From positions 32,001 through 96,000 of IMG/VR virus record IMGVR_UViG_3300013936_000011: a DNA stretch of 64,000 nt; one strand, given 5' to 3'. This document shows positions 16,101 to 35,000 of the stretch, piece by piece. How positions within the stretch are numbered: position 1 is the first letter of the stretch; every line of letters starts with the position of its first letter. The position numbers and the translations under genes were made by a program. The notes beneath the pieces were generated by a model, which was given only the letters and a program-made list of their open reading frames with translations, did not search any database and was not told the DNA's origin. Origin of the DNA: a virus (lineage: Duplodnaviria > Caudoviricetes).

Positions 16101-19100
16101 TCTCCAGTACGTAAAGGTAGATTCTGGAGTTTTGGTTCTGCTTCTGAATACAGAGGTGGAAGTATTACTTATTGGGAACCTAACTATTTAAAGAGAGCTA
16201 ACAGTGATTGGAAAGATGCTGGTATTTATGGAAGTATAGATAATAGATGGGCTCATAGCTGGATACCAACTCCACAACATCCATTAGCTCCTATTAGAAG
16301 ATTACTAGACCCATACTGGCTAGAAAAATATCATTTAAAAGAAAATGACAGACCTTATCCTTTAACTGGTAAAATGTTTACTGAAGGTACAGCCTGGGGT
16401 GCAGTACTTAATCCTACTATTGGACAAATATTAAAACCAGTTAAAATGCTACCTCAAGTTAAACGTCGTTTAGGTAGAGACGGTAGAGATTCTGTAGCTA
16501 TAATAGAAAACTTAAATAACAGAATCAAACAACGTGCTAAAGAAAATGATGACTTAATGGTAGTTAATGGTACAGATATAAGAAATGCTGAGTACGTTCC
16601 ATACGGTAATCCAGATGATGATGAACTTAATGTAACTGTTTCAAATGGACATGCAACTGTACAAGGCATGAATTATATGGACCAAGTTAAGAACATAAGA
16701 GAGTATGAGCCTCCAGATGGAGTGACTTATACAAATGATACTATAGATTATAATAGTGGTACAGTTAGCAGAAAACAACAATACATAGTAAGCAAAGCTG
16801 AAAAATTTGTAGATGAATTGGATAGAAGCAGTTACAATGCTACTAGTATAACTGAAAGTGCTACTAATATAATTAAAAAAGTAAATACAGCAATTAAACG
16901 TAAGAGTAAACATGCTAGACGAATAGATAATTCTACTTTAATGCCAGATAAACGTGAAGGTACTTTTGTATATCGTAACTTAGCAAATGAAAGGCTTAAT
17001 TACGATAATCAATATTACTCAGACCATGAAATTAAAAAGATGGTTGATCGTAGCGTTTATAAAGATTATGCCAGAGATGTTAAGCACAGTATAAAAGACC
17101 TTACTGGTATATATGGATTCCTTGGTGATAAAGCATTTGGTACAGATACATATACTTATCGTTTTGCTAATGCTGGTGAAATGACAAGTTTCAGCCGTGG
17201 ATTCTGGGATTCTAACATTGGTGGTTTAGGTGGAGAATTTATGGAAATCGCTAGACGTTTCTTCCCTAATACTGATAAGTCTAGAGTAAGTTATAATCCA
17301 TTAAGAAATAATATGCCAGATTGGATACCAGATACATATCATTATGGAGACCCTTATGTAGAAATACCTAAAGGCGAAATGAGACTTCCTGGTAAGGGTT
17401 ATGAAGCTATGTATGATTTGCATCCTGACCAATTCGGTAGATATGGTGCATTTGATAGATATAAAATCTTAGCAGATATTGCTCCTAACAGTACTGAATT
17501 TAAGAAATGGAAGAACATAGCTAAGAATACAGTAACGGATCCTAATTTAGTTAAAGAGATGGAAGACATTGGCGTACGTGCATCCAAGATGAGTGGTAAT
17601 CACGAATTCTTTGATTATAAATACATACGCAACAATCTTGAATACAGAAAAGGTAGAGTTCAAGGAATAAGCAATGGCCAAGTCGTATTAGCTGGCGGTG
17701 AAACATTAACATTAGCTGGACTTAACGTAAATGACCAAACTACTGAAGCATTAAAAGAATACTTAAAACCTGGACAAAAGATTACATATCGTACATATAA
17801 AGACAAGAAGATAGATTTAGAAAATACTCAAAGAATAACAGAAGCTGTAGTATATAGTGGCTCATCAAATATAAATGAGAGATTATTAAACGAAGGATAT
17901 GCTGAAAAGAACAAAGAAGATAATTCGGCTCTTGGTATAGCTGGTACACAATCTGGTCATCAAGAAGTTATGGGCGGTCTTCAAGAAGTTATAGCACATG
18001 CTCCTTTACCATACGTACACAGTAAATTCTTAAAAGTAGAAACTCCTCTTGAATCTTATAAGAATGAATTGTATTATGGACATCCATTTAATACATGGGA
18101 CCATCCTATTAAAGGATTCGTAACTCCTGCATTTAATAAAAATAGCGGTAAGAGTCTTGCAGGTGAAGCAGTAGCATTAGGATATGCTTATCTACACTTT
18201 AGTAAAATAGCAGGTAAAACTAGTAGTAAGTTATTAAGTAACGTTAGCACATTTACTATGGCTACATTAAATCCTGCATCATTCCTTGGTATAGCTTTAG
18301 GTTATGCTACTAGATTAAGTAATGGTAAGATAGAAGGTAATGGCGGAAGCTCTTTAACTAATGCACAAAAAGGAGCAGCTATTACTACTGCTATTAGTGC
18401 TGCTAAATATGGTTGGGATAATGCAGATAATCCTCTTAAAGCAGCTACTACATTTGCATTTGCTGGTAGTGTAATATCTCATAACCTAAAAGGCGTAAAT
18501 GAATTTGCAAGAGAAGCATTTAATAAAGAACTTAATTTCTTGCCTGGTGATTTTAAAGCTGGTGCTAAGATAGGAGCTCTCGTAGGTTTAGGAGTGTCAG
18601 CTATAAAGAACTCTCATTTTGACAAAGACAAAATATTCTCAACTAAATTTGTTCCTAAAGAAACAAAGGAAAGATGGGACATAGATGAATATTATGACAG
18701 AATGGAATATGTTAAATATATGGGATTATACAGAAAAGCAGCTAGAAAAGCTGAATTTTTTGAACATTCTAATATAAGAAGCACATTTAAAGAGTTAGAC
18801 AAGAATAAAGAAAAGATAGCTAAGCTTGATAGAAAAGCTACTAAACTTGCAACTAAGAATTCTACTAATGAAAAGATACAAAGCAAATTAACTGAAATAC
18901 AACAACAAAGACAAGCTCTTGAAGAACAAAACAACATGTTCTTTAAAGGTGGCAAATATACACAATCTGCTGTAGCTTATAAGAAGAAAGCAGAATCTAC
19001 ATTATATGGATTAAGCCCTACATCTACTAAAGATGAGTTACTAGCTGCAGTTCCAGATGAATATAAAGATCACTTCCAAGCATTTATGGACGTTACAGAT

Positions 19101-19595
19101 AAACATGAACAAAAACAAATATTAAAATATATGCCAGATTATTTAAAACGTCCATTGCAAATATCATGGGGACAAAAACCTGATAAGATGGAATCTAATT
19201 ACAGATATTTCAAAAGAAAGAAAATGCCTTCTATGTTCTGGAAAGGTTGGAAACCTAATGTGAATCTTAAATACGTTAAGATGAAAACTATTCAAAACGA
19301 AGGTATGATGTTATCTGATTTTGGTTACTATGAATCTGAAAAAGCTAAGCCTATGTATGAGGCAGCTCCTAGTATAGATGATTATAATAATAATTCAGGA
19401 CAATTATATAGAACTAATCTATTAACATCTTTACATGGTATGGGAATAGGACCAATGAATATATCTGTTAAAACTACATCAGCCCCTGGTCTATGGATAT
19501 ACGGTGATGTAAAGAGTACAGTAAGCGATGCTACAAAAGTAGCAGGCTATAAAGTAGCTACTGCAGCTCAAACATTGTCTAGTTTAATATTTTAA
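13167..19595 (+). CDS. Probable tape measure / ejected protein with degenerate thermonuclease (SNase)-like domain
   Basis: 2142 aa immediately after chaperones; basic N-terminus plus hydrophobic helix; Gly/Ala-rich hydrophobic segments near 18150-18600; SNase-like pattern ~17640-17910. Confidence 0.6.
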   Translation: MARKRRDKKRDPSTLERLSKVSVTALAVGAGAVFLNRNKSVNKFLTDTASPLLKSTKGFKKDLIGRDKKNLMTYYRAYQKNFGKNRSKLRDEIKRRKISPLALNVKNSKAVRDALEHKQFVSKTGYKALEKNKRIAGKILARQELYKYFLQSEKYKHLTEDNARQIVKNVYDKLDDEAIASKIIDEMIPKTMEGIGIEKIDFNEIFTLINEVKKKSSPKTNSLDPYLRKNKDLFDSLKGHRTREESAFDKVDKFFKKFLDVDINSEKFITSSKAATIGDLEDNLEKFDFESPLYEKMNVTAKKPSTRSKRKEFDYDTFIQTLKDMYGEEDYRNVVLDPSIRIKDGADGPEFFSVEEMSETMKNIKNGFKDTLPGQILAKGFDDKRGMPDIAIIPADTKSAFARARTFDIDEVGQAFKEDRERNISSTPSLYMDGYLYDMRENADGKVTIDFDSGQRVKMVSGYKRRVLNELLGTTDEYKPEAFHSELAKKLGLVQDGKFNPINHLMRSLTKFEDPNWEFNQIESIEGIYLSTASPADTVKDMRSLGTAETEISKYKSRLHRNEETVAALLNKKLTGITDETMEAIIDSGNITEKQRDMLQALMDGDITFYIKAAAFDEAGNYNLKDIKNDKLRNIVNNLITDTKATLDSTETLYKKGAALPILELEFDSSTKLNLEGQLRIETVKDILLNKQGTDDAMFNWIDELNVNDIPITSKDNAMLKSMGTLAVFEDRTHLGTISNFTSAVNSLYENTDYTLNTELELNPQMKNRFENDLGSIKSDFGLFSIGYNKNLNEEYGTDYTKYGLIHMSSASQILTYNMNEGIKFNAQALKDTVRELNAGRNDPEHITELTINLQYLLSRLSYSVEGEGLGLSANDMGSPLETVKNIALKRLLPAAAIYQGYNVLNYESQKLTGTSIPGAFANSLANIDIASRRLIENTPLYGALNSLAESSVIHEYYFGDRHFNTAEEEQEYYETGYSPVRKGRFWSFGSASEYRGGSITYWEPNYLKRANSDWKDAGIYGSIDNRWAHSWIPTPQHPLAPIRRLLDPYWLEKYHLKENDRPYPLTGKMFTEGTAWGAVLNPTIGQILKPVKMLPQVKRRLGRDGRDSVAIIENLNNRIKQRAKENDDLMVVNGTDIRNAEYVPYGNPDDDELNVTVSNGHATVQGMNYMDQVKNIREYEPPDGVTYTNDTIDYNSGTVSRKQQYIVSKAEKFVDELDRSSYNATSITESATNIIKKVNTAIKRKSKHARRIDNSTLMPDKREGTFVYRNLANERLNYDNQYYSDHEIKKMVDRSVYKDYARDVKHSIKDLTGIYGFLGDKAFGTDTYTYRFANAGEMTSFSRGFWDSNIGGLGGEFMEIARRFFPNTDKSRVSYNPLRNNMPDWIPDTYHYGDPYVEIPKGEMRLPGKGYEAMYDLHPDQFGRYGAFDRYKILADIAPNSTEFKKWKNIAKNTVTDPNLVKEMEDIGVRASKMSGNHEFFDYKYIRNNLEYRKGRVQGISNGQVVLAGGETLTLAGLNVNDQTTEALKEYLKPGQKITYRTYKDKKIDLENTQRITEAVVYSGSSNINERLLNEGYAEKNKEDNSALGIAGTQSGHQEVMGGLQEVIAHAPLPYVHSKFLKVETPLESYKNELYYGHPFNTWDHPIKGFVTPAFNKNSGKSLAGEAVALGYAYLHFSKIAGKTSSKLLSNVSTFTMATLNPASFLGIALGYATRLSNGKIEGNGGSSLTNAQKGAAITTAISAAKYGWDNADNPLKAATTFAFAGSVISHNLKGVNEFAREAFNKELNFLPGDFKAGAKIGALVGLGVSAIKNSHFDKDKIFSTKFVPKETKERWDIDEYYDRMEYVKYMGLYRKAARKAEFFEHSNIRSTFKELDKNKEKIAKLDRKATKLATKNSTNEKIQSKLTEIQQQRQALEEQNNMFFKGGKYTQSAVAYKKKAESTLYGLSPTSTKDELLAAVPDEYKDHFQAFMDVTDKHEQKQILKYMPDYLKRPLQISWGQKPDKMESNYRYFKRKKMPSMFWKGWKPNVNLKYVKMKTIQNEGMMLSDFGYYESEKAKPMYEAAPSIDDYNNNSGQLYRTNLLTSLHGMGIGPMNISVKTTSAPGLWIYGDVKSTVSDATKVAGYKVATAAQTLSSLIF

Positions 19596-19635: not shown

Positions 19636-19654
19636 AAGGTAGGTGTGTGCGTAT

Positions 19655-22600
19655 ATGGCGAATTTTAATAAAAATATTACGATATATGATAATAAATATA
19701 GTGTCGTTAAAGGTAGAAGAGCTGATGGTACTTTTAGAAGTGGCAGTGAGACATTAGCAGACAGACAGAAGAGAGTAAGTACTAAGTTTGCTGATGACAT
19801 AACAGCTATTCAAGACTTTGTTGATACTTTTGCCAATCAATCTAAAGTCATCTTTAGAGATGATAATACATTGGTTCTTAAAACTTCTCATAAGCCATTT
19901 GATAGAGTAGAAGAAAGCGAAGCTGCTAAGAAAGCTTTAGATATATTAAATACTAATAAATTTTTCAATACTATCACAAACAAAACAAGTCCTAGTAACG
20001 TAACTCTTAAATATCATAATTTAGCTAATATAAATACTACTGCTTCTTATGATAATATGAGTCATGTATTTGATAAATATCAAAACATAATAAAGAGTAA
20101 TGGTACTATAGTCGGTTACGACCTTGAAACACTTGGTGGTATGTCTGATGGTATATGGAATCCATTAGGTATAACTGAATTCGGTATTAATAAACAACAC
20201 ATAGTTAATGGTAAAGTAGCTAAAACAACTAGTGAGAATATCATGCTATCTGGTACTGTAAATCATACAGCTGAGTTAAATAAAATCAGAGCCGTACTTA
20301 TGAGTCCTAATGGTGCTAAGAAATTAGCAGAAGATCCTCAATATAGAGGTCTACTTGTTTCTGCAAAACGTTATAGTATGTACGGTCATAAAGATACTAA
20401 GATACATTTTGATGGAAAGAAAGGCTACGGAGTAATCGACTCATTCGTCGGTGAAAAAGGAGAAGCTTGGGGTAATTTAGAACAGATTACTGCAGGTGTT
20501 AATAAATTTATAAATATAGAAAAACAAGCTTCACAAGCCATAGATGAAGCTTCAGGATTAAGAAAAGATGTTAAAACATCTATTGATTATATATTCGATA
20601 TAATGAAGACAGGAAACGATCAACACGGTTTAGTAGTAGGTCATAATATACGTGGATTCGATAATGCTGCACTTAATCAATATGTAAAGAAACTTTATAA
20701 CAGTGATAAAGCTGCACAGAAATATATAACTAGTAAAATGGGTATCCTAGGAATAAATACTCCAGGATTCCATTTAGGACCTATTGCACAAGCCGATTCA
20801 TTAAACTTTTCTAGGGTAGTAAATAACAAGAATTATATGGGTGCATTACTTGATGTATCTGATAGAGGACGTCAAATACTTGCTCAAGCTGGACGTGGAA
20901 TTAATAAGCAAGAAAATATAGGAGCAGTATTCTTCCCTCACTTATTCGAAGGTGCTATGGCGCATAGTGCAGGTAACGATACAGCCGTAGTTAATGCGTT
21001 CTTTACTCATAGATTTACAGAAGATTATTTAAAGAAGATAGGTATCGATCAAGATGCTATCGGTACTTTTAAAGGCAAAACTCTTATAGAAGCTATGAAT
21101 GATATGATGGGCTCTTTCGATAATGCTGTCGATATTAAAGCTAATCGTCAACAAATATTTATGGCTAATAAAACTATGAATGGTAGCTTTGGCGGTAAGA
21201 AAGTATTTAACTTTACACGAGATAGCCAAGGAAATATAATAACTTCTACTGGTCATTTTATTAATCCAAATGGAGGTATAGAATATAATCCTGTACATGG
21301 TAAACAAATAGGTGTAGTTAGAAATCAACCATATACTATAGTTAATTATGGTTCCGTAAACACATCTCAATATTCAGGGCAATTAGCTAACTTAGTACCT
21401 GAGTTTGCAACGGATGAAGCGTATTATTTAAATCTAGAACAAGTAGTTGGTGATAAATATAAATCAAGAACAAATCCTACACAGACTACTATGTTGTTCT
21501 CTACTAAAGAAGAAATGGAAGGCTTTATAGATTCATACTTGACTCCATTTGCTGAATCTACTACAGGTGGAGGATATAAATATCTTGGTAACAGAAAAGT
21601 AGCTGAATCATACGCTAAACAATATATGCTTACTGATAAAGGTTTAGAATTTAATCAACAACAATGGAATAGTATGTTTGAAGCTGAACAAATCAAAGGT
21701 GCTTTAAATTCTAATTTCGAAAGAAGATACGAAAAGAAAGCTGCTGAAAACTTCTTATTTGGAGATAAGTCTGCTAAAAGAATTGGTGAGTCATTAGACT
21801 TTATAGAATACTTGAACAAAAAGAATTTATCTGCAATGACTGCTGATGATTTAGGACGTATCTATTACAATAAATACAGCGGAATGAAAGTAGGAAATGT
21901 AGAAATTACTAAGAACCTAGCCGATGAAATTAGAGAGAACATCAAAGATACATTCGGATTCCATCCTAGAGACGAAAACGGTAAGCCTCTTGAAAAGAAA
22001 ATATTATTAGATGCTACTGCAGATAATGCTATAGCTTCATTCGAACATGTTAAAGAACAAGAGAAATATTATAGAAATGCGTTAAACACAGTTTTTAAAG
22101 CTCACAATATAAATCCTAGTCAACATGGTAGTTATGGAGTAACTATAGCTAAAAGTGGTCAAGTCATGGCTGCAATTAATAATGACTTTATTACTCTTAA
22201 TGATGCATTAAGTGTTCCAGTAGCTAATTCTGTAGGAGAATTTATGGATTTATCTGAAAAAGGCGTACGTAACTTAGCATTAAATGCTGATACTCAACTT
22301 ATGCCTAAAGCTTTAGTAGATAATATGTATGAATTCAAATTAAGTAAAGATTTTTATTTCAATAAGAAAGCTAGTAATATTAATGGCCTTATGTCACCTA
22401 AAGAGTATCAAAACATAATTCAATATAGTCTTGATAGTTCTGACCCTGGCATGAACTTTATAGATAAGCTTATTAAAATACAAACAGGTGCTACACGTCA
22501 ATTAACAGAGACAGAAAGAATACAATCTGGTAGACAAGTATTTTATCAATTTGTAAATGACGAGTTATCTAAAGATAAAGTACTTAGCAAAAATCAACAT

Positions 22601-25600
22601 ATAATAGAACTAGGTAGTTATGTACAAAAGAAAGACTATAACCTACGTCATGCTTTATCATATTTAGAACAAGGTATTTCCGAAGTTCGTGAAGCAAATC
22701 CAGAAGCTGGAGTTATTAGATCAACTGCAAAACGTGGAATAAAAACTAATTATTTAATGAGTAAATACAGAAATAATCTAACTCCTGAAGCGATGGCAGA
22801 AACCATGAAAGGTATAGGTAAAACCGTAGATGTATCTTCAGCAAAGGGTACAGAGAGAAAGAAAATGGTTGAAAAACTAGTCAACAGCTTTATCATAGAT
22901 GAAGGCACTTTCTCTAGAGATTTAAAAGCATTGCATGGTTCAAACACTGACGCCATAGAAGATACTATGTTAGCATATCGTACATTAAAGAAACAATATG
23001 GAACATTTGTTAATGACTTAATAGATGCTGCAGGTAACGTAGATATGAATTTAGTATTTAATGAAAAGTCTGGCAGACTATTTGTTCAAAAAGGAGAAAA
23101 GATGGTCGACTTAGATAATATAGCTAGAATTATAAGCGACCAAGGTGCTTTATATGGTAAGAGTGGAAGTCAAAGACTTGCTATACACCATGTACTAGAA
23201 TATGATCAAAGAGCGAAGGCTTTAAAATATAGAACTAATTTAGATGACCATTTCGGCGGAATGAAGACTTTAGTTAAAAGAATTGATAAGTTAGCTGAAA
23301 AGGGCGAAGTAGACCTTGACTCATTCAGAAGAGCTGTTGGTAAATTACAAGTTGATCTTAATGAAGCTCCTGTTTATAAATATAATTATGGTTCTTTATT
23401 ATTAGCTAATAGCCCAGTTGATATAAGAGGAGTAGATCCATTATATCCTGAACTATTTAAAGAAGATGGAGAATTCCATAGCATTATAACTCGTATGAGT
23501 AATAACGATAAATTCAATGTTGATGATTTACAAAACATAATGGAAAGAAGAATACCAGAGTCTTTAGAGCCTGGTAAACTTGATCCTATGCAAAGATCAT
23601 TAATGTCTCCAGACGTAGTCCCTATACTACAAGAGTTCAATAGAGCTACTACTAATAACTCTGTTGTCGATAGAATATTAAAACATATAAATGATACTGG
23701 TAAAGAAACTAAAGAGACTAAAGGTATAAAAGTAGTCAATGAATTGTATATTCCACAAGGCTCTGGAGGATTTGATAACTATGGTCGTCCAGTATCAGTA
23801 TCTGCTTTTAATAGAAACTGGATAAAAGCGAACACTATAGAAGAAGCTAGTAAGACATATGAAAATCTATTAATAGGTGCTAGAGTTATAGATACTAAAC
23901 AAGTACATGCAAACATATATAAAAATGTTAAAGAAGTCGGTAATCTAGCAGGTGACTTTGCAATAAGACAATTAAATATGTCAAACCAAAACATATCTCA
24001 ATTAGTTAAATACAAGAGAAATTCAGTAATTGATTCTATTATAAATAAATATTCAAACGATCCAGATAGAAAATATATAGCAGATGATGTTGAACAAATA
24101 ATGTCTGAAGTGGAACATATAGTAAGAGGTTCTGTATATGAACAAGGTAAACTTATGGACCCTGAATTATTTGAAAGACTTATCGGAGATAATCCTCAAG
24201 ACGTTAGAAAGATAAGTTATAACTTAAATGCTATTCCTGCTATAGAAGCTATGCTTGAAAGGGAAGATCCTGAGAAATTAATCAAGACTAAAATCCCTCA
24301 AATGAGGGAGATGTTTGGTGAATTAAAGAGAGACGAAAATGGACATTACAGATATGTTAAGACTCCTGGTACTATTATTAAACGTGGAGAAACTATATTC
24401 CCTTATGAAGCATTCGGCGATATAGAAAAGAGATTCGGTTCTAAATTCCCAGAGAGTGTATTAAGTCTGAAGTTTAGAAACAAAGAAGGTATTGAATTAT
24501 CTGAAGCCGAAATATCAAAAATTATAAATGATACTTTTGGTAAACAGGATATTGATATAAAAGATGTAATCAATCTATTTTCAAATGGCGATGAGTTTAC
24601 TGCAGCATATGAAGTAGCGCATATTTCTCAACAAGAATTACCTAAGACTTTCTCTAACAGTGCTGAAAAATCTATGACTCGTATACCATATGCAAAAACT
24701 GGTTCGCACGATCCGAGAATAAGAAAGATATTAACTGATACTGAAAATGATCATTGGGTTAAAAATATTGTATTGAGAGATGAGACTCTTGATGCTTGGT
24801 ATCATGATTTAGAAAAAGCTTATAAAGATGGTGGCAAGACAGCAAAAGATATTCTTAAACAAAATGGTTTTGATACTATACAAGATTTAAAAGAAGCTGC
24901 TAAACGCGAAAGATTACTTTATCGTGATTTTGTATTTGGTGAAAATAGTATATTTGGCATGGTATCTGTAATAGCTAATGATAATGTTACAGGCCATGAA
25001 AATATGGGTCATCAAATGTCTAGTGCATTAGGTGAAGCTATAAGACTTACTGGTAAATACACAGCTAAACCTGGTGCTAGCAATACTGAACAATGGGAAT
25101 CAGGTATAAATAAAGTAGCTGAAATAATAGCTTCCGATCCTAAGAAATTTGGCTTTATAAGAGAAATGGATAGTAGCAAAGGTGTAAATGAAGCTAAGAC
25201 ACTTGATATTTCTCAAAACCTATCATTGCTATTTAGTACAAATACATATGATAAAAATAAAAAAGGCATTGAAGTATTAGACTCTGAAAAGATAGTTAAT
25301 TTATTCAGAGAGATAGATAAAACTATACTTAAGAATGCTCCAGAAGAAGATAGACTAGTTCATACTAATCTTGAAGGTGTAGATGAATTAGTTGGAGCTG
25401 TTAAGACAATAACTGTAGACGGCAAGAGACATGCTATTGGTTCTGTAGGTGTTACTTCTACTGCATTTGCTGAAGATTCAGAAGTGCAATCTGGTGTCAG
25501 TCAAGAATATCTTGATGCTAAAAAAGCTTTAAGACAATACACTCATATGTTGGATCAAGTAAAGGCTATTAAGCCTGAAGATCTTACAGAACAACATATT

Positions 25601-28600
25601 AACTTGCTTAAGATTCTACCAGAGAGAATAGAAGAAATACGTAACGAAATAGATGCTATGTCTGACGGTGCTGCATTTATGAAAATAGATGATCAGCTTA
25701 GAAACATACTTAGTAACTCAGCTTTAAACAGTACTACTGAAAGACGTTTAAGTAATTTAATTGCAAACAGTAGTGATCCTTATGGGTATACTAAATTGAT
25801 AGAAGAAGCTTCTGATAAGTTAATAGCTCGTAATAAAGATGGAGAATTTGAAATAAATAAAAAGTATAAAACAGATAATGTCAATAGACCATGGCTAGAA
25901 GATGTTAAACAACAAATTACTTTCAATCCATTAGAAGAAGACGAGTTAACTGAAAAGATGTTAAAGGAAGAAGAATACAGACATCTTGAGCCTATATACA
26001 ATGAAGTAGTCAGAAAACGTGGTATGAAACTAGGAACTGATAGCGCCGAATTATTCTATCAAGGTAATATCGCTTATGCTGGTGCTAAATTTAATGCTGG
26101 CGGAAATGTTGATTTACAGCCTTTATTAGACAAAGGAGTTGAAGTTGTACCTGCAGAAAAATATGTAGGTAATCTTGGCAGAGCTTCAGCTGGTCAATTT
26201 GTAAGCTCATATGCTGACAAAACTATATTATTAGACTTAGGTGAAAACTATGCTAATATGTCTGAAACAGGAAACAGATACATAGCAGTACCTGGATTAG
26301 GTAATGTAGTGAACAGTCAAGAAATTAAAAGAGATTGGCAAAAGACTGCAGGCGCTTTAGCTAATACATGGCAAGAATGGTCTAACCTAGGATTTAATGA
26401 TACTGAAGAAGGTCTTAGATTAGTTAGCAGAATGGATGACTTATACGATAAATTAAATACTGAAAGTCAACAAATAGTTAAGAAAGGTAACGTATTTGCA
26501 GAGAAAGCGAAAGTAAGAGTTAATGCTCCTGCACAACGTCTTAAAATACAAGCTACTCTTGGCGAATCAGAACTTCACGATCCATTAATAGATAAGATAA
26601 GAGCAAATACTCCTGATAATTATAAGGTTGATGAAGACTGGTTCAGAGACAATGCGACAATATTAGGTAAATCAGTATCTGAATGGGAAAAACATGGTCC
26701 TAATGGTCCTAGCTTATATTATAACTACAGATTATCATCAATGTCAGACTTCCAAAATAAAGGTTATTTTGATTATGATTTCATGAGACAAATGGGATTC
26801 ACTAAGAAAGATGCTAGTGGAAACATGGTACCTATTACTGATAAAACTGAGTTACGAAGTGAAATGATAAACTATTTAAAAACTCATGGTACTATGGATA
26901 TCTCAGACCGTTATCCTAATATATATGATACATCTGCACTTACTAACTATACATTCTTAGACACAACATTAGCTGATAATGCTACAGCTATAGCAGGACA
27001 TACTTTATCTAATCTTAATGGTGACCTTGACGGTGATTCAGATTCAACAGTTAAAATAGCAAAGAATAACGTAAACTATCTTTTATATAATAAGCATAAA
27101 GAAGATTCTATGGCACAAATGAAAGCTGATTTAAAAGCTCAAAACATAGATATAGATTCTTTAGACAAAGATATGGTTGAAGAAAACTTACGTAGAAATA
27201 CTATTCAATCAATGAAGCAAAATAATGTCAGAGGTACTGCTGAAGAACTTGGCGAAGCTTATGATTTCTTTAGAGGAAAAGAATTAGAATCTATTAGAGT
27301 CGCTGTAGATAATGCTAAAGTTGTAAGAGAAAACGTAGCAGAGACACTTGCTAAAGATAGTGGTAGAGCTTATAAATCTATGGCTTTATCAGTAGATGGT
27401 AAAAACTTGTTAGCAGAAGTAGAAGGTGGACGTTCATCTCTTGGTAGATTAAGAACGTTTAATAGAAGAGAAAACGTTGGAGCTGGAGAATTAGTTAAAA
27501 GCGATAACGAATTAAAAGATTATTTCGCAGAAGCTGTAAATGTATTAGATAAACAACCTGATTTATTTAAAGGCGAAAAGTTTAAATACGTTGAAGGCAT
27601 GAGAGAAATAGGAGATAAAGAATCTGCTAAGACTGTTGTTTCATTTGGTAATAACCAAAGAGAAGCTTTAGATGAAATGCTTTACATATTACAAAAGAGT
27701 GGTAGTCAGATGGCTGACCAAGCAGAAACTGCAGCACTTGGAAGAATTCAACAAAATAAATATGTCGAATCACTATTATTCAAAGGTTCTAAAGATGCCA
27801 TAGGTTTGGTTGATGCTCAATTATATGCTATGAAGCAAGCATCTGATAATTACTTTGCTCAAGCAGAAAAAGATACTGAACGTAGATTAAGATTATCTGG
27901 TATGAGCGAAAGTGAAATCAGAAATAGTCCTGAACTAAAATCTATTGCATTAAAAAGAGGAAATATAACTTTATTCTCTGGCGGTTCAGAACAAGATATT
28001 ATATCAGCTAAAAAGCTTAAAATGTACGCTGGTGATGATCGTTTCATGTCATTTGGTGGAACAATGCAATCAATAAGAAGTGGTAGAGCTACACAAGAAA
28101 CTCGTGAAGACTTCTTAGATTGGTTCGAACGTTACGGTAAATTCTCTACTGTAGCTAGTCAATTTGATACATGGGCAGATGATGGTACATTAAGTGAATC
28201 TATGATTAATAAAGCTTCTTCTTATATTGATAAATATGAAAAAGAAGGCGTTAAAGATGCTGCTGAAAAAGGTAAAGCTATGTATCTTGCTGAACACTAT
28301 TATGATACTATAGATACATTAAATAAGAATAATGAAAGCTTTAGAGCAGATGCTAACTTATTTGCTGTATTCGGTAGAAATGGTGGTAGCGTAGAAAGAT
28401 TAGTTAATGTAGAAGGAGCTTCTGGTGAGAGTCACACAGCTTTAATACAAAGTTTATTAAGTGGCCAAGATGTATCTTATAAAGACCATGACTTTGAAAA
28501 ACAAGGCACTAGAGTTATGGCAGATAGATTAAAGAATATAAATAACTTTAAGAACATTACTAAAGCTAGTAGCGAAACATTAGAACATATAGTTGAAGGT

Positions 28601-29002
28601 GGCAAAGATAGTTTATTAAGTAGCCCCGCTTCTATAATAGGATTTAGTGCTATCGGTTTAGCTATAGGTGTAGCTGCTGCAGGATATGCAGGTGGACCAC
28701 TTAAGAAGAGTAAAGCTGTTCAAGACGAACAACAACAAAGACAACAAACAGACGATAGAATGACTGTCCCTGAATTTTTTGACAATCAAGGAGGCTTTGT
28801 TACAGGAAATTCACAACAGGGCTATATTATCAATATCAATGCTAATACTAAGAAAGGTGAACGTCATATGAAGAGAGCTATGAAAGAAGCTGTATCAGCT
28901 TCTGTTGGTGGCGCAGTAAGTATAAATATGAATTTCAAAAGTAATAGTAGTGGTGGATGGTCAGATAAAGATATCGAAAAAATAATTAATAATTATATGT
29001 AA
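19655..29002 (+). CDS. Giant virion protein: DEDDh 3'-5' exonuclease plus single-chain two-barrel (DxDGD) RNA polymerase, hydrophobic C-terminus
   Basis: Start revised to ATG 19655 (AGGTG SD 19641-19645). Exo motifs YDLET (20117), GHNIRGFD (20639), HSAGND (20963). RNAP motifs YEQG (24137), K-x7-K (24644/24668), VIANDNVTGHENMG (24968), RYP (26909), NGDLDGD (27017-27037). Confidence 0.8.
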   Translation: MANFNKNITIYDNKYSVVKGRRADGTFRSGSETLADRQKRVSTKFADDITAIQDFVDTFANQSKVIFRDDNTLVLKTSHKPFDRVEESEAAKKALDILNTNKFFNTITNKTSPSNVTLKYHNLANINTTASYDNMSHVFDKYQNIIKSNGTIVGYDLETLGGMSDGIWNPLGITEFGINKQHIVNGKVAKTTSENIMLSGTVNHTAELNKIRAVLMSPNGAKKLAEDPQYRGLLVSAKRYSMYGHKDTKIHFDGKKGYGVIDSFVGEKGEAWGNLEQITAGVNKFINIEKQASQAIDEASGLRKDVKTSIDYIFDIMKTGNDQHGLVVGHNIRGFDNAALNQYVKKLYNSDKAAQKYITSKMGILGINTPGFHLGPIAQADSLNFSRVVNNKNYMGALLDVSDRGRQILAQAGRGINKQENIGAVFFPHLFEGAMAHSAGNDTAVVNAFFTHRFTEDYLKKIGIDQDAIGTFKGKTLIEAMNDMMGSFDNAVDIKANRQQIFMANKTMNGSFGGKKVFNFTRDSQGNIITSTGHFINPNGGIEYNPVHGKQIGVVRNQPYTIVNYGSVNTSQYSGQLANLVPEFATDEAYYLNLEQVVGDKYKSRTNPTQTTMLFSTKEEMEGFIDSYLTPFAESTTGGGYKYLGNRKVAESYAKQYMLTDKGLEFNQQQWNSMFEAEQIKGALNSNFERRYEKKAAENFLFGDKSAKRIGESLDFIEYLNKKNLSAMTADDLGRIYYNKYSGMKVGNVEITKNLADEIRENIKDTFGFHPRDENGKPLEKKILLDATADNAIASFEHVKEQEKYYRNALNTVFKAHNINPSQHGSYGVTIAKSGQVMAAINNDFITLNDALSVPVANSVGEFMDLSEKGVRNLALNADTQLMPKALVDNMYEFKLSKDFYFNKKASNINGLMSPKEYQNIIQYSLDSSDPGMNFIDKLIKIQTGATRQLTETERIQSGRQVFYQFVNDELSKDKVLSKNQHIIELGSYVQKKDYNLRHALSYLEQGISEVREANPEAGVIRSTAKRGIKTNYLMSKYRNNLTPEAMAETMKGIGKTVDVSSAKGTERKKMVEKLVNSFIIDEGTFSRDLKALHGSNTDAIEDTMLAYRTLKKQYGTFVNDLIDAAGNVDMNLVFNEKSGRLFVQKGEKMVDLDNIARIISDQGALYGKSGSQRLAIHHVLEYDQRAKALKYRTNLDDHFGGMKTLVKRIDKLAEKGEVDLDSFRRAVGKLQVDLNEAPVYKYNYGSLLLANSPVDIRGVDPLYPELFKEDGEFHSIITRMSNNDKFNVDDLQNIMERRIPESLEPGKLDPMQRSLMSPDVVPILQEFNRATTNNSVVDRILKHINDTGKETKETKGIKVVNELYIPQGSGGFDNYGRPVSVSAFNRNWIKANTIEEASKTYENLLIGARVIDTKQVHANIYKNVKEVGNLAGDFAIRQLNMSNQNISQLVKYKRNSVIDSIINKYSNDPDRKYIADDVEQIMSEVEHIVRGSVYEQGKLMDPELFERLIGDNPQDVRKISYNLNAIPAIEAMLEREDPEKLIKTKIPQMREMFGELKRDENGHYRYVKTPGTIIKRGETIFPYEAFGDIEKRFGSKFPESVLSLKFRNKEGIELSEAEISKIINDTFGKQDIDIKDVINLFSNGDEFTAAYEVAHISQQELPKTFSNSAEKSMTRIPYAKTGSHDPRIRKILTDTENDHWVKNIVLRDETLDAWYHDLEKAYKDGGKTAKDILKQNGFDTIQDLKEAAKRERLLYRDFVFGENSIFGMVSVIANDNVTGHENMGHQMSSALGEAIRLTGKYTAKPGASNTEQWESGINKVAEIIASDPKKFGFIREMDSSKGVNEAKTLDISQNLSLLFSTNTYDKNKKGIEVLDSEKIVNLFREIDKTILKNAPEEDRLVHTNLEGVDELVGAVKTITVDGKRHAIGSVGVTSTAFAEDSEVQSGVSQEYLDAKKALRQYTHMLDQVKAIKPEDLTEQHINLLKILPERIEEIRNEIDAMSDGAAFMKIDDQLRNILSNSALNSTTERRLSNLIANSSDPYGYTKLIEEASDKLIARNKDGEFEINKKYKTDNVNRPWLEDVKQQITFNPLEEDELTEKMLKEEEYRHLEPIYNEVVRKRGMKLGTDSAELFYQGNIAYAGAKFNAGGNVDLQPLLDKGVEVVPAEKYVGNLGRASAGQFVSSYADKTILLDLGENYANMSETGNRYIAVPGLGNVVNSQEIKRDWQKTAGALANTWQEWSNLGFNDTEEGLRLVSRMDDLYDKLNTESQQIVKKGNVFAEKAKVRVNAPAQRLKIQATLGESELHDPLIDKIRANTPDNYKVDEDWFRDNATILGKSVSEWEKHGPNGPSLYYNYRLSSMSDFQNKGYFDYDFMRQMGFTKKDASGNMVPITDKTELRSEMINYLKTHGTMDISDRYPNIYDTSALTNYTFLDTTLADNATAIAGHTLSNLNGDLDGDSDSTVKIAKNNVNYLLYNKHKEDSMAQMKADLKAQNIDIDSLDKDMVEENLRRNTIQSMKQNNVRGTAEELGEAYDFFRGKELESIRVAVDNAKVVRENVAETLAKDSGRAYKSMALSVDGKNLLAEVEGGRSSLGRLRTFNRRENVGAGELVKSDNELKDYFAEAVNVLDKQPDLFKGEKFKYVEGMREIGDKESAKTVVSFGNNQREALDEMLYILQKSGSQMADQAETAALGRIQQNKYVESLLFKGSKDAIGLVDAQLYAMKQASDNYFAQAEKDTERRLRLSGMSESEIRNSPELKSIALKRGNITLFSGGSEQDIISAKKLKMYAGDDRFMSFGGTMQSIRSGRATQETREDFLDWFERYGKFSTVASQFDTWADDGTLSESMINKASSYIDKYEKEGVKDAAEKGKAMYLAEHYYDTIDTLNKNNESFRADANLFAVFGRNGGSVERLVNVEGASGESHTALIQSLLSGQDVSYKDHDFEKQGTRVMADRLKNINNFKNITKASSETLEHIVEGGKDSLLSSPASIIGFSAIGLAIGVAAAGYAGGPLKKSKAVQDEQQQRQQTDDRMTVPEFFDNQGGFVTGNSQQGYIININANTKKGERHMKRAMKEAVSASVGGAVSINMNFKSNSSGGWSDKDIEKIINNYM

Positions 29003-29086: not shown

Positions 29087-32000
29087 ATGGCTAATAATCT
29101 TTCAGATATAAGAGATAAATGGGCAGAGATGAAAGTCTCTAAAGTAGAAAATACTGATATGGATATAGAAGATTTTGTCCCTAATATCTACGAAATGATA
29201 AAAGAAGATTGTATTACTGAATATCTAGGGTCTATATCTGATTCTTTAAATAAAGGCAAAGATGATTATAAGAACGTAGCTTATTATTGCGAAGCTCCTT
29301 ACAGTGAAACTCTAGGCTATGATGATAAAGAAAAGGTCTGGGTATTAAGTGTAGACGGAATAGAATATAGTAAAAATATGCTTGATATGGGTTCTATAGA
29401 TGGTGATACATATGGTTTTAGTTTTTCTGATATAGATGATGGTGGCAAAAGCGCAACTATAGGTTCTAAAACATATAAAGGATTTGAAGATTATATTAAA
29501 TCTATGAACTGCGTTAGTAGTGGTGGCGACGACAGAGGCGGTATTAAAGTCAGAGCCGCAGGTGTAGACTGTGCCGAAATCCCTCACTACGAAGCTGTGG
29601 TTGTTTACAATAAAGATACAGAACTAGAAGCATTGACATGGGACCAAATAGAAGGTTTAGCTGTATCTAAAAAAGCTGAGATACAATATGCTCCTTATCT
29701 TATAAATAAGAATAAGAGTGATGATCCTGATAAATGGACTCTTTCAGAAAGAGATAAATCACACTCTGTTTTATTCTACAAAAACAAACAAGACGGAATT
29801 ACTACTTATCTAGAAGTAGTTAAAAAAGATGCTTCTTATTTATTTAGCTCATCTAGTGATTATGCTGGCGGTACTCCTATGTTAGTTGTAGGAGCTGGTA
29901 AATCTTGGGGCAAGGATACAGTATTAGATGGTTATAAAGCTCAAAGAAGAATCAAAGAGCTTTTAATAGATAAAAAGAGCAGCATACAAGATATGATACT
30001 AATACTTGATGCTCACACTACTACTGCAGTTAGAACAGCTCCTACATATACATGTTATACCTCTTTATATTATTTCCCTGAAACAGTAAAAAATATAATA
30101 CAAAGTTGGATTGATAAACAAGATGGTAGACCATTAAGCAGATTAACTTATTCTCCATTCGGTACAGATAAATATGGACGTTTACTAGGAACACTATACG
30201 TTAAGATGAAAATGAACGGAGAATCTGTATGGATTAATGTATCTAAATATGTTCAAGCAGGAACAAACCTTACTGAACCAGATCCTGATTTTAGTGGTTC
30301 TCCAGAATTAGAAGGTATTTACAACGGACTAAGTAACGATGCATTTAAAATAGGAAGTTATAATAACTCTTATAGATTTATAGATGATAGTAATGTTAGC
30401 GGAAATGAATCATTTGAAAAAATGATCAAACTTCATGAATCTCTTACTGGTTTAGAATGGAACGCAGAAAAAGAATGTACTGTATTGCTTGGTGATAGCT
30501 TCTTCTTAATTCCTCCACAAAGTATTCGTAATGTAAGTAACATAGATTATACAAAAGTACCACTATTAAGAAGTAAAGGTACCATGGTTAAGAATCAAGC
30601 TAACCGTGAACAAGTACTCGAAATGGACGTATTCTTCTATGGTGAAAATGGTATCAACGGTATTCCGTATAAAGCAGAAACGCCTAATGGTACAGAAGTT
30701 ACTTACTATATGAATGGTCTAAGAGCATTATTTGCTCAGTTCAGAATATGCCCTTTCTTACCTATTCATAATTATTATATCAATAATGTATTAGGAATAG
30801 AAGCTGTAACAATGGTAGGCATCTCACTTGATACGGTTGAAGGATTTCCTAAATTGCTTAAAGCTACTCTTACTCTTCGTGAGTTTAACTACAGAGTTTA
30901 TATGCCAGATTTACCTATACAATATGTAAATAGTGATACTGGTAAAATACAAGACTTTGAACCTATATTTGCCAAATGTTTCGAATGGGAAGTTTACAGA
31001 TATTATTATCAAAGATGTATTATGCACGGAGAAGAAATAAGTAAGTATACTTACAATACATATGAATACGGTGAATACTATTATTCTTATAAGAATGTCT
31101 TACAACGTGCAAATTTAACTTCTCAAAGTATAGAGTTTTATGTGCCAGATGATAATTGGTTAACTAAAGCTTTACAATGCAAAAAAGATAAGGATAGATA
31201 TGGTCAAATGATATCTTCAGTATCATTAAATGATGATGAATCAAGTTATGTAAATGAAATAGCTGGCGATGATCCATTAGTAGATAACGATACTTTTAAA
31301 AGCAAACTTAAAACATTGCTTAAGGATAGTAAGGTTCAACTTAAAAATAAATATAATACTTCAGATAGTGTAGTTGGTGTCAACACCAATGATATATACC
31401 GTACTGATGATTATGCTACAACATGGTCTAAATCAAGAACTCATGTTATGGATGTTAAACCTAGCGATCTTAAAACTATATTCAAGAACAGACTAAATGT
31501 ATTATTTAACTTAGGATGGGTTAATGATGTTACATTAGATGAAGGATTAAATAGTGCTAATACAGCAGTCGTATGGACTTTTAATATCAAGCTTGATACT
31601 AGTAAAGTTAGTTTAGATAATATCAGAGAATATGTCAGAGACTTATCAACTAAGACAGATGAAGGTGCTTCATCAGCTAACTTCTTTAAAGATGGATGCG
31701 GTAAATATATCGTAACAGCTCAATATGATGAAAACAGTAAGTTTGTCGGCGTATCAGCTGCTTATGATGCAGGACTTGCCGCTATAATGGCCGCAGGTTC
31801 AGGAAGTAATAAGCCATCTGAAGTTAGCACAACTTCTGAAGTATTCAATTATGCAAACTATACAGATCCTAAAGCTATGAAGTTTGTTCCTTACATAAAA
31901 GATTTAAATGGTAACAGTGTAAGCATAGATCTAGATTTATTACATGTAGTAACACAAAACACTTTTACAGAAATGTATTTAAAAGCTCAAGATGGTTTTG

Positions 32001-35000
32001 CTCCTCAATTTATGGGTGGAGGAGATGTAACATTTGAAATAATGTTTACTACACAAGATTTATTAGTAGTATCATTAATGAATCAATTACCTGCTTATGC
32101 ATTACAAACAACTAAAACATATCGTAGAGTAATGCCTTGTTTCCCAGTTAAAGCTAAAAATGATTATTTACAAATGCTAGGAATTAATGAGTGCTTGGTC
32201 GAAAATGTTAACGTAACAACAGTAGACGGCTTCCCTGGAACTTATCAAATACAAATGAGATTCACATCTGTAGATAGAACATTAAGACAAAGAGAAGCTT
32301 TACGTAAAATAAATACTGATGGATTTACTAGTGATATAGCATCTACTAATATAAAAGATTATTTTTCATTAGAAGAAGCTCTAGCACAATCTGAATTATA
32401 TCCTGACTTAGATTTACCTAGTCTTGCTGAATTAGAGAAACTAGGTTGGAGCTATTTAAAATATGCTAATGAGAATAGAGCATATGTCGATCCTGATTTC
32501 TATATTATATATTCTTATCAATACAGCGCTCAGATGACTAAAGAGATAGTTAAAACATATTTGTATGACAAATATTATGTAGCAGCTGAAAAGGATAAGG
32601 AAGATGGTACAGAAACAAAAACAGTTGGACAATGTTCTGCCAGTGATTCTGTATTACATATGGAAGACGATAGTGGTCTTGTTTTAGCAACTAAGCTTAA
32701 TAAGATAATGGGACTTGATGTATGCGATAATAGTCAAAACTCTGTATCTAAATATGCGCAAGAATTAATGAGTCAGCTCAATGTAGCAGGTGAACAAGAA
32801 ACTTTATTTAGAAAAGGTAGTATGTTTGCATCTGATAATTTCGATGACTTAATGGAATTAGGCACAACTTTATCTTGCTTAACAGCTTATGGTATAGAAA
32901 ATGGATGGCAAATAAAAGAAGGTTGGTTTGCTACATTGTCTCAAACTTATGTTAATGATTTAGTTGAAAGATTAAAAGTATCAGGCATCAACAAAGCTAA
33001 CAGTAAAAAAGAAGATAAAGAAGCAAAATGGGTAAACGAAATATACACAAAGAGAAGAAATGCTATCCTTGCTATAAATGAAATACTATATTCTCCAATG
33101 GAATTAGAAGGCGGAAATAGATATGCTGATTTATCATGTGTTGCTGATGCTTTCTGTAAAGTATTCGATACTGATGCTGGTATAAGACTATTAAATATTT
33201 TAGACCCTATGGGCAATTATTCAAAAGGCGGATTAAAGAAACTTGCTACTACTGGTGGTGAAAGTGGTGGAGCATCTAGCGGTCACTTTAGTGAAAAAGA
33301 TGGCTACTATTATGGAGACTCTTCTTATACTACTGACAATGCTGGTGAAAAATTTGATGAAGAAGTATGGGCTGAAGGTAACTTGCCATTATACTTACAA
33401 GGATATATTTACGCAGCAGGTTGTTGTCGTACTGGTCAACAATATAATAAGAGCAATAACGACTGGGCTCCACAACAATTTATTAATGGCGATACTAATA
33501 AACCTAATATAAGATATAAAGATAACAAAGTAGTTAAAGCATACGACGAAAATGATAAAGACATAAAGAAGATAGCTAAAGATAAGAACTTAGGCATGGA
33601 AGATGCTTATTGGTATTATGTAGCTACTGTTGGAGATTTCTTTGGTGCTTGGGGAATAGGTAAATATAATATCAAAAGAATACAAGATATGATGTGTCCT
33701 AAAAGCCAAGTTAATTATAAATGTAAAGAAATGTACGATTTAAGTAAAGATCCTAAATGGTGCGAAAAAGGATTCCTTGATCCATATTATAACTACCAAG
33801 GTTACAGAAGTAAAAAAGGTCGTGACTATATAAAAGCTATATCTACTAATGCATGCGATAACTGTGTAGCTTTCATACGTGTAGTATTACAAAAGCTAAA
33901 AGAAATGCTAATAGATGGTTATTTTATAAGTGAAGTAGATGTTATAGCTGGAAACTATGATCAAGTAAAAAAAGAATGGGACGAATATATTGATCAATGG
34001 GATAGTTCCTTAAACTATAATAGTGGTGATCAAGACCACGGCGGAAGTGGCAAAAAGCTACAAGAAGAGGCACTTAATGATGCAATAGAAAAGAAATACG
34101 GTATGTCTAAAGAAGATATGGATGCATTAATAGAAGACGATATACCAACTAGTTATTCTCAAATATTTAGTGCTAGAATGATTTATCCTGTAATGTTAAT
34201 GGCAATAGACTGTAATGCTAAAATAGCTAAGTTAGTAACAAAGAGAAATTATGATGAATTAAATAATATGACTCTTGGTACTTCTGTAGGTACTGCTGAC
34301 TGTACTCCTATGAATAAATTCTTACAAGCATTAGCTGGAATTAAGATGTTAGGAACAACTATGGAAACAGATACAGATGCCATAACATCAAATGCACAAA
34401 AGATATTTAATACTTTAATGCAAGAAATAGCTGAAAACTTCTCTAACGATCCTAGAAGATATGTACTTCATAGTTTCTATGATATGCTTACTACTGATAA
34501 GAGAGGTAGATTAGTAAGGGCTTTCCCTACATTTTATATTATATTTGTAGATGAAGGTAGACGTATAGGTACATGGAAATTATACGATAACTTCTACAAC
34601 ATGTCAGCTATAAGCAATATAGATATTGTTAAATCTAGAAAAGTACCAGCAGATACATGCACATTTACTATGAGTAACTTATATACTTCATATGCTTCTA
34701 CATACGATAATACAGTGTATCAACAATACGTAGATGTATATGGTGTTAAAGATTACTTTAATAGCATATTCTCTCCTCGTGCTTATTTAAATACAGAAGA
34801 GATGATACGTGGACGTAAACAATTAACAGATACTACAGTATTAAGTGCAGGTGTTAGAATACATGTAAGAATGGGTTATGGTTCTGATGGTTCTAAATTG
34901 CCTATAGTATTTAATGGTAAAATAGCCGAAGTTAACTGCGGTGAAACTATCGATGTAGTATGTCAAGGTGATGGTCATGAATTAATGAATCCATTAAATG

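Follow-up and report, generated by a model that had tools for sequence, protein, structure and literature searches.

The virion-delivered RNA polymerases (RNAPs) of bacteriophages are known in four forms, namely the T7-like enzyme of N4, the QDE-1-like enzyme of crAss-like phages, the split multisubunit enzyme of phiKZ and the tape-measure fusion of P23-45. The literature searched describes these N4, crAss, phiKZ/AR9 and P23-45 solutions together with YonO-type enzymes in 0305phi8-36 and c-st (PMC7598289, PMC7824862, PMC10770324, PMC13282480, PMC2147016). Here, we address a stretch of DNA of 64,000 nucleotides (nt), referred to as the window, which corresponds to bases 32001-96000 of the linear 146.6 kb IMG/VR virus record IMGVR_UViG_3300013936_000011 (CheckV completeness 56%; GC content of about 30%). 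A giant gene in its tail module probably encodes a virion protein of about 350 kDa of an uncultured, low-GC, 0305phi8-36-like jumbo myovirus, the central ~1600 residues of which would constitute a single-chain two-barrel RNAP. No description of a single-chain beta-beta' enzyme in a tail giant of a myovirus was found in the literature searched, most subscription journals falling outside that search.

In the Thermus siphovirus P23-45, gp96 (PDB 8H2M) is a two-barrel RNAP within the giant protein of the tail tape-measure slot, and the phage encodes a further two-barrel RNAP, a non-virion one, at another locus, both of which are points of likeness to the present locus (PMC10770324). However, gp96 belongs to a phage/RNA-dependent RNA polymerase (RdRP)-like clade, is clamp-less and 'flat', and is located at the N-terminus of a ruler of 5002 amino acids (aa), whereas the enzyme considered here is of the cellular type (structural alignment Z of 13-14 for its beta-like part), has a complete beta'-like part, clamp region included, lies mid-protein behind exonuclease motifs and comes from a jumbo phage with a contractile tail; sequence similarity between the two is undetectable. 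The RNAPs of phiKZ and AR9 (PDB 7OGP/8QUE and 7S00/7S01) share the cellular-type beta/beta' architecture and score among the top structural matches of either module, and phiKZ-like phages also package a virion enzyme. In contrast to the single chain in a tail-operon giant described here, they are built from 4-5 polypeptides with the virion RNAP residing in the head, and the present giant protein escapes the Pfam RNAP models by which cellular enzymes are detected. The crAss phi14:2 gp66 (PDB 6VR4) and N4 gp50 are likewise giant, virion-delivered early polymerases that are encoded beside other giant virion genes (bioRxiv 10.1101/2020.03.07.982082; PMC13492108). Unlike the present protein, gp66 is QDE-1-like and podoviral, 6VR4 not being among the 50 matches listed in any structure search, while gp50 is T7-like and not two-barrel, and neither of them displays beta/beta' collinearity or the fused DEDDh motif set. 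An earlier note on this DNA, which proposed a polymerase hidden within the giant protein, had named gp66 and the tape-measure-fused gp96 as precedents, and both exist as it described them (PMC10770324).

The gene itself is as follows.
Window 19655..29002, + strand: giant-protein gene; its open reading frame (ORF) opens at GTG 19643, and ATG 19655 is the likely true start.

The frame 19643..29002 (+ strand) comprises 3119 codons without stops, corresponding to 3,115 residues from ATG 19655; residue numbers used here count from 19643, ATG 19655 being residue 5. The earlier note had numbered the frame from 19643, and while it is open throughout, the true start is most likely ATG 19655, because homologues begin with MANFNK and a ribosome-binding site (AGAAGGTAGGTG) precedes this codon. 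Upon translation, all nine motifs which the earlier note had listed were found at the residues it gave, i.e. DNYGR (1378-1382), GSVYEQGKLMDPE (1496-1508), PGTIIKRGETI (1575-1585), PKTFSNSAEK (1667-1676), VSVIANDNVTGHENMGHQMSSALG (1774-1797), DRYP (2422-2425), NGDLDGD (2459-2465), SKDAIGLV (2716-2723) and EQDIISAKK (2783-2791). The Escherichia coli residues that it had given for comparison are right in rpoB and rpoC of strain MG1655 (beta R678, NFED at 811-814, K1065/K1073 and the beta motif at 1094; beta' R425-A-P and NADFDGD at 458-464).

A word-indexed search of 5.8 billion proteins retrieved seven relatives, and 59 (52 at E <= 1e-10) were found when 1.84 billion cluster representatives were searched exhaustively with HMMER. 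Full-length relatives number 37, measure 2.8-3.2 thousand residues and exhibit an identical layout, and none carries a name. P0060, which was considered as a second paralogue in the same genome, was rejected as such, being a distant orthologue from another phage. The 37 full-length relatives were aligned with the query using MAFFT (38 sequences in total, most of them 20-30% identical to the query), and only 84 of the 3119 positions (2.7%) are kept in at least 36 of the 38 sequences. This small set includes R1382/P1383, E1500/Q1501, G1576/G1582, K1668/E1675/K1676 and N1779/D1780/H1785/N1787/G1789, followed by R2423/P2425, D2461/D2463/G2464/D2465, K2714/G2721 and E2783/I2787/S2788/K2790/K2791, in addition to an N-terminal DEDDh set and a block at the extreme C-terminus. 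By our own arithmetic, the chance that ten named positions would all fall into such a 2.7% subset is ~2e-16. That every residue singled out by the earlier note is among the 84 near-invariant positions argues for preserved chemistry rather than a decayed domain, and the conservation in homologues of DxDGD and of both lysines, which the earlier note had put forward as a check, is complete (38/38).

For the first part of the polymerase, an AlphaFold2 model of aa 1345-2540 (model 1) was built from the 38-sequence alignment, with a mean predicted local distance difference test (pLDDT) value of 86.8 and a predicted template modelling score (pTM) of 0.85. The features concerned are listed below.
Window 23675..25942, + strand: beta-like module, aa 1345-2100, including the second (lysine-bearing) barrel, from the AlphaFold model and VIA-align.
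Window 24140..24145, + strand: E1500-Q1501, candidate counterpart of beta E813-D814 (NFED); invariant in 38/38, pLDDT ~89.
Window 24644..24670, + strand: K1668-x7-K1676, candidate active-site lysines (beta K1065/K1073); both invariant in 38/38.

When VIA-align was applied to the Foldseek list, residues 1-605/757 of model 1 were placed on second-largest RNAP subunits, including E. coli beta 553-1310 (Z 13-14), the beta subunit of the plastid-encoded polymerase (PEP; Z 13.7-14.0), the phiKZ non-virion RNAP (nvRNAP) chains 8que_C (Z 13.7, root-mean-square deviation (rmsd) 3.4) and 7ogp_C (Z 13.0), AR9 7s00_C (Z 13.0), and also the second-largest subunits of African swine fever virus (ASFV), vaccinia and Pol I/II/III/IV (Rpb2 among them). 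The outcome was alike when model 1 was aligned in an unbiased manner with 48,161 representative chains, ranks 1-9 being occupied exclusively by second-largest subunits (Z 10.2-13.7) from bacterial, plastid, phiKZ, AR9, Pol I, Pol III, Pol IV, ASFV and vaccinia enzymes. The structural collinearity of the module with beta begins at the fork region and extends as far as the part of the clamp at the C-terminus. Judged by order and spacing, E1500-Q1501 would be the counterpart of beta E813-D814, while K1668 and K1676 have the x7 spacing of E. coli and are located on adjacent strands (pLDDT 86-92); around R1382, the putative equivalent of beta R678, local pLDDT is ~49. Between E1500 and K1668 lies a beta-rich insert with strands at aa ~1560-1613, in which G1576 is invariant and G1582 is kept in 37/38. 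It is at this position that a flap sandwich-barrel hybrid motif (SBHM) is present in cellular and jumbo-phage beta subunits and absent from YonO/RdRP types (PMC7824862).

The second part was modelled with AlphaFold over aa 2090-3119 (model 2; pLDDT 72, good to about aa 2945), and contains the following features.
Window 26102..28522, + strand: beta'-like module, aa 2154-2960, with a clamp-like N-terminal part, the Asp-triad barrel, a long bridge-like helix and a C-terminal part.
Window 26522..27079, + strand: canonical double-psi beta-barrel with metal-binding loop, aa 2294-2479 (model 1 residues 950-1135).
Window 26909..26917, + strand: R2423-Y-P2425, the [RK]xP element before the Asp triad; R and P invariant in 38/38.
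Window 27023..27037, + strand: D2461-L-D2463-G-D2465, putative Mg-binding aspartate triad (DxDGD); D, D, G and D invariant in 38/38, pLDDT 87-93.
Window 27713..27895, + strand: 60-residue helix, aa 2691-2751, with K2714 and G2721, bridge-helix candidate (DSSP helix 602-662 of model 2).
Window 27929..28015, + strand: helix ending E2783..I2787-S-x-K2790-K2791, trigger-loop-base candidate (helix 674-702 of model 2).

In VIA-align, the 50 best rows for model 2 were all beta'/Rpb1 chains (Z 7.6-8.5, 340-450 residues aligned), and residues 65-870 of the model (aa 2154-2959) are collinear with E. coli beta' 23-1361. Foldseek against the PDB likewise returned RNAP largest subunits for all of the best 50 matches, both with model 1 (E ~1e-4, probability 0.87-1.0) and with model 2 (E 3e-4, probability 0.85-1.00), the top match of the latter being the N-terminal beta' part of the AR9 nvRNAP (7s01_d), and a shape search of the ESM Atlas with model 2 retrieved Rpb1_1/Rpb1_2 clusters, one of them a phage cluster. 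Among the 48,161 chains, residues 768/810-1135 of model 1 match the N-terminal part of beta'/Rpb1/A190 (Z 8.3-9.0), and the canonical double-psi beta-barrel, a fold that the earlier note had expected in a model, is matched by CDC48-N (Z 9.1, rmsd 2.0, 84 aa) and the designed msDPBB 7dww (Z 8.0, rmsd 2.0), with further matches to VAT-N, expansins and formate dehydrogenase barrels. The R-x-P element precedes the Asp triad by 38 residues (35 in E. coli), and together they satisfy the two-barrel RNAP filter [RK]xPx{20,100}DxDxD as defined in Supplementary Data 4 of PMC10770324. In the modelled structure, the aa 2691-2751 helix (pLDDT 83-90; K2714 and G2721 kept in 37/38) and the helix that ends at E2783..K2791 (E2783, I2787 and K2790 invariant in 38/38, S2788 kept in 37/38, K2791 in 36/38) appear to take the positions expected of a bridge helix and of a trigger-loop base.

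With respect to the arrangement of the barrels, QDE-1 (Z 7.8, 257 residues), P23-45 gp96 (Z 7.0) and P74 gp62 (Z 7.0) each superpose on residues ~6-1135 of model 1, so that one rigid superposition of single-chain enzymes spans both barrels, which is the best available support for a polymerase-like barrel arrangement, the pTM of 0.85 adding to it indirectly. The proposal of the earlier note that both catalytic double-psi barrels are fused in one chain, beta-like then beta'-like, is supported by both AlphaFold models as well as by structure searches of four independent kinds. As to its type, Z values of the beta-like module against multisubunit-type enzymes are about twice those against QDE-1 or gp96, and PF05183 (RdRP/YonO) does not match the giant protein gene. 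Because of the beta scores, the clamp-to-C-terminal coverage of beta', the lack of a PF05183 match and the beta-rich insert, the predicted enzyme most resembles a fused minimal beta-beta' core, which would place it nearer to the cellular, phiKZ and AR9 multisubunit polymerases than to YonO or QDE-1 types; since the Z values of phiKZ/AR9 tie with those of bacterial and plastid beta, no closer kinship to phiKZ/AR9 is claimed. In all, the models support the notion that aa ~1345-2960 represent a complete single-chain cellular-type two-barrel DNA-dependent RNA polymerase, its activity being predicted.

Upstream of the polymerase, and at the other end of the protein, the following features were distinguished.
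Window 20090..20992, + strand: DEDDh (DnaQ/RNase T-type) exonuclease-like motif set, with ExoI D160-x-E162, ExoII N335..D340 and ExoIII H441-x4-D446.
Window 20993..23674, + strand: region aa ~451-1344, with no Pfam or PHROG match.
Window 28610..28693, + strand: single, strongly hydrophobic stretch at aa 2990-3017, predicted to be a membrane helix (Kyte-Doolittle scan, mean 1.92).
Window 28769..28999, + strand: C-terminal end, aa 3043-3119, highly conserved and carrying the motif GY-I-I-N-I; P3043, G3060, Y3061, N3064 and M3096 invariant in 38/38.

The six residues D160, E162, N335, D340, H441 and D446 are invariant in 38/38 and occur in the order ExoI DxE, ExoII Nx(2-4)[FY]D, ExoIII Hx4D. For this exonuclease-like region no significant Pfam match was obtained and a PDB profile search was empty, with weak profile matches to RNase_H_2 (0.0025) and DNA_pol_B_exo1 (0.0034) in 1/38 members each. 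Fusion of an exonuclease to a polymerase is characteristic of proofreading DNA polymerases, which would fit a two-barrel polymerase of another specificity (RdRP, primase-like enzyme or DNA polymerase) proofread by the DEDDh exonuclease. In accordance with this, two-barrel enzymes include archaeal PolD and QDE-1, the latter with dual template use (PMC10770324; PMC9508822). However, for both parts, including the clamp region, DNA-dependent multisubunit RNAPs are far ahead of the other structural matches, no PolD chain was among the 50 matches listed per search and QDE-1 reached only Z 7.8, which makes another specificity very improbable compared with the DNA-dependent RNAP proposed here. The region aa ~451-1344 might hold an equivalent of the beta N-terminal lobes; the features of aa 700-1345 score only 0.79 in the ESM Atlas. 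In the membrane segment, where model 2 is of low confidence, G3009, G3014, A3016 and G3017 are conserved, and in the C-terminal end D3110 is kept in 37/38. The layout of this end, with a membrane segment, a Q-rich linker and GY-x-[IV]-N-[IV], is that of the last ~120 residues of gp146 of Bacillus phage 0305phi8-36 (GYEVNVKG in gp146), a weak similarity of 5.3 bits.

The neighbourhood of the gene relates directly to whether the polymerase is a virion component, and the relevant neighbours are listed here.
Window 4333-7299: tail sheath, 988 aa.
Between the sheath and the three giants: small ORFs at the tube and chaperone positions.
Window 13167..19595, + strand: upstream giant, 2142 aa, orthologue of 0305phi8-36 gp145 and of ME3_35 (virion structural protein).
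Window 29087..37462, + strand: downstream giant, 2791 aa, orthologue of the 0305phi8-36 gp147 baseplate hub and of ME3_37.
Window 38927-39739: baseplate-J gene; long fibre-like genes are also part of the module.

Nearly all genes of the window lie on the + strand. They make up a structural module to which the terminase, portal, protease-like and capsid genes directly upstream of the window also belong. Three giant genes follow each other in a row (2142, 3119 and 2791 residues), with the polymerase gene as the middle one, and the order on one strand is sheath, tube-position genes, gp145 orthologue, polymerase gene, hub orthologue and baseplate J. A common order of sheath, tube, chaperones, giant, giant and giant hub is found in the Acinetobacter jumbo phage ME3 and in 0305phi8-36, and blastp supports the orthology of both flanking giants (9e-37 against gp145 and 4e-14 against ME3_35 for the upstream one; 5e-68 against gp147 and 2e-14 against ME3_37 for the downstream one). 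This orthology puts the polymerase-bearing protein into the slot of gp146, one gene away from the chaperone-position ORFs and before the baseplate hub orthologue, and the location in the tail operon to which the earlier note had drawn attention is not only real but can be narrowed down to this slot. According to the annotation of the 0305phi8-36 record, gp145 was seen in virions by mass spectrometry, and gp146 is a mass-spectrometry-verified virion protein and hypothetical tape measure. The tape-measure role of gp146 has been assigned from tail length, and its positional homologues align only over the last 60 residues (Hardies et al., PMC2147016). As to a ruler function of the giant protein considered here, at least 1600 of its residues form a globular polymerase in the models. 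From position and neighbour orthology, we infer that the polymerase is packaged in the virion.

It may be argued instead that an active RNAP is co-expressed with the late genes and transcribes late or middle genes in the cell as a non-virion RNAP, given that this is a large gene whose RNAP part resembles the non-virion enzymes of phiKZ and AR9. This explanation is improbable: the gene is situated in the tape-measure slot between orthologues of virion proteins verified by mass spectrometry, its product ends in a membrane helix and a conserved end that weakly resembles the end of gp146, its position is conserved in a distant relative, and the genome already contains a separate polymerase candidate in the early region. 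This relative (37% identical) retains the three-giant cassette on another contig. In that contig a small ROS/MucR-family gene (9382-9891, - strand) is found between the first and second giants, and is absent from the window. Another side observation at this junction is a perfect 9-bp inverted repeat, AAAGCCATG-ttaaa-CCATGGCTTT (window 19596-19619), which directly follows the stop codon of the first giant and lies 36 nt upstream of the ATG of the polymerase gene.

The slot proteins of the two reference phages are themselves informative. Like the polymerase-bearing protein, gp146 and ME3_36 are encoded between orthologous giants, and gp146 has a weakly similar C-terminal layout, but it contains no DxDxD motif and gives no profile match to the polymerase region, whereas ME3_36 is half the size and has no sequence-level match. 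Neither is called a polymerase in PMC2147016 or PMC7824862, and Iyer et al. give no two-barrel enzyme for the group of ME3. Using the full-length family hidden Markov model (HMM) against gp145-147 and ME3_35-37, nothing significant was obtained in the polymerase region, and the family profile had no match in the whole ME3 genome. A Foldseek search of BFVD with the RNAP model returned fragments of giant phage proteins, including an unnamed one (E 1.5e-8), a metagenomic "minor tail protein" (4.3e-7) and ME3_36 (E 1.9e-5, 571 columns). ME3_36 is a hypothetical protein of 1603 aa from a cultured jumbo phage (ME3 genome 13173-17984, equivalent tail slot), with R-E-P followed ~40 residues on by D-H-D-Q-D; hhalign of the family against it places DRYP..DLDGD opposite REP..DHDQD, but at a probability of 0.2. 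ME3_36 may be an unrecognised polymerase-derived tail giant.

According to a further alternative, the protein mainly has a structural function, as tape measure or in ejection, and its core, although derived from a polymerase, grips or pulls the genome into the cell, or acts as a pilot or plug, with little or no role in making mRNA. The tape-measure slot and the tape-measure-like C-terminus would suit this function, as would the fact that ME3_36, in an equivalent slot, keeps only the D-H-D-Q-D variant. In T7, entry of the genome is known to be driven by transcription. The idea has been raised in PMC2147016 with regard to the polymerase of 0305phi8-36. On the other hand, pulling of DNA by transcription would still require an active RNAP, and the invariance of three Asp, two Lys, E-Q and R-x-P across 38 sequences of ~25% identity points to retained chemistry, leaving a purely structural role with little probability.

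Several observations weigh against a virion-packaged polymerase as proposed above. Among PDB sequences, no RNAP match was found by phmmer with the protein or by a profile hmmsearch with the family; PF00562 (RNA_pol_Rpb2_6) and PF00623 (RNA_pol_Rpb1_2) gave no match at E <= 10 across the 146.6 kb record, all 14 control genomes having given matches; and blastn and tblastn against 50,697 phage records, a set from which near-identical records may be missing, returned no match, no cultured member of the family being known. The beta' match, with Z ~8, is in a range that helical proteins can reach by chance. The absence of polymerase motifs from gp146 implies that the slot alone does not indicate a polymerase, nor a polymerase a ruler. 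Moreover, a folded, clamp-bearing enzyme of 350 kDa cannot traverse the tail tube unless it is unfolded. As for the first of these points, Pfam and PHROGs also gave nothing meaningful and no RNAP match on the giant protein, and hhalign of family profiles against E. coli rpoB and rpoC (probability 0.2) was uninformative because each template was one sequence; since sequence methods find nothing in the polymerase region, 'hidden', as the earlier note had put it, is accurate wording. The beta' match is nevertheless credible, because all 50 rows belong to one family and the alignment is collinear over the full length.

The sequence of events envisaged for the virion-packaged polymerase takes the passage problem into account. 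The protein would be built into the tail or virion via its tape-measure-like C-terminal end, i.e. the membrane helix and conserved terminus, and would be ejected at infection, necessarily in an unfolded or extended state because the folded clamp-bearing enzyme cannot pass the tail tube, and would then refold. Once injected, the polymerase could begin a host-independent, rifampicin-insensitive transcription of the first phage genes, and a YonO/RdRP-type enzyme encoded in the early region might take over later, in a two-polymerase scheme like those of N4, phiKZ and P23-45. The DEDDh motifs suggest that a 3'-5' exonuclease travels with the polymerase, with host nucleic acid, transcript 3' ends and template ends as candidate substrates. 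In a bolder version, which is unlikely as it stands, the protein would be a membrane-anchored transcription machine whose C-terminal helix and end stay at the tail tip or membrane while the polymerase engages the first emerging DNA, coupling early transcription to genome entry, and the co-delivered exonuclease processes template or transcript ends or destroys host nucleic acid; in that case, jumbo myoviruses would have arrived at the P23-45 solution independently and with a cellular-type enzyme, and ME3_36 would mark a wider, unrecognised set of tail giants derived from polymerases.

The enzyme that might act later is represented by P0066, a protein of 716 aa (genome 10910-13060, - strand) in the leftward early region, which contains K-Y-P...GSDFDGDD. 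Its nearest ESM Atlas clusters (score 0.98) have PF05183 in 16-19% of their members, and PF05183 matches P0066 itself at the DFDGD site, with 12 bits and below the cut-off; in B. subtilis, the one control genome with a match, the score likewise did not reach the cut-off. On this basis P0066 looks like a candidate non-virion RNAP of the YonO/RdRP type, and the adjoining P0067 (566 aa, genome 9125-10825, - strand) could be the second half of the same polymerase and perhaps act with it. In 0305phi8-36, an RdRP-family polymerase (orf99) has been reported along with 21-bp phage-specific promoter candidates (PMC2147016). In the present record, ten copies of the 21-nt element TCACAAAAnTGTnnAGTATTC with 0-2 mismatches are distributed over genome 1378-7965, to the left of the window and upstream of leftward genes; all of them are intergenic and lie on the + strand, from which the leftward genes would be transcribed as template. 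The inspected copies are directly followed by a GC-rich stem of 5-7 bp with a GACA loop (nine perfect stems of at least 5 bp), and no hairpin with a TGTC loop occurs anywhere in the record. These elements are promoter-like, recalling the hairpin promoters of N4 and, in 0305phi8-36, the 21-bp candidates. When direct repeats that might represent a second promoter class were sought upstream of the P0066 operon, nothing convincing emerged.

As regards the remaining genes of the window, the downstream giant matches phrog_20474 'endolysin' at aa 1774-2374 (7e-171) and has a hydrophobic segment at aa 2411-2446 by Kyte-Doolittle scan. A sub-threshold staphylococcal-nuclease (SNase) match was also noted at its aa 354-376, and the hub homologue of BtI1 bears an SNase domain according to Hardies et al. 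Just past the tube-position gene, a 912-aa ORF (window 8094-10832) matches a 'major head protein' PHROG with its N-terminal 170 residues (1.6e-30), although the capsid gene proper is upstream of the window. A crAss-like origin, which was first suggested by the three giants and the GC content of 30%, is excluded by the tail sheath, baseplate J and the 0305phi8-36-type synteny.

If the reading of the giant protein as a virion-packaged polymerase is correct, its significance extends to several aspects of phage biology. It bears on the escape of phages from host transcription and on the delivery of very large enzymes through tails, as well as on the evolution of two-barrel polymerases, since a minimal beta-beta' enzyme without a fused alpha or omega homologue (the rest of the genome was not searched for alpha or omega) would represent a natural "core of the core". 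It would also illustrate that giant "hypothetical tail proteins" can conceal enzymes which are visible only by structure prediction, and the Foldseek match of ME3_36 points to a cultured phage for a related idea. If true, the four forms of virion-delivered RNAPs would be joined by a fifth, consisting of a complete cellular-type beta-beta' in one chain, with fused exonuclease motifs, in the tape-measure slot of a jumbo phage with a contractile tail.

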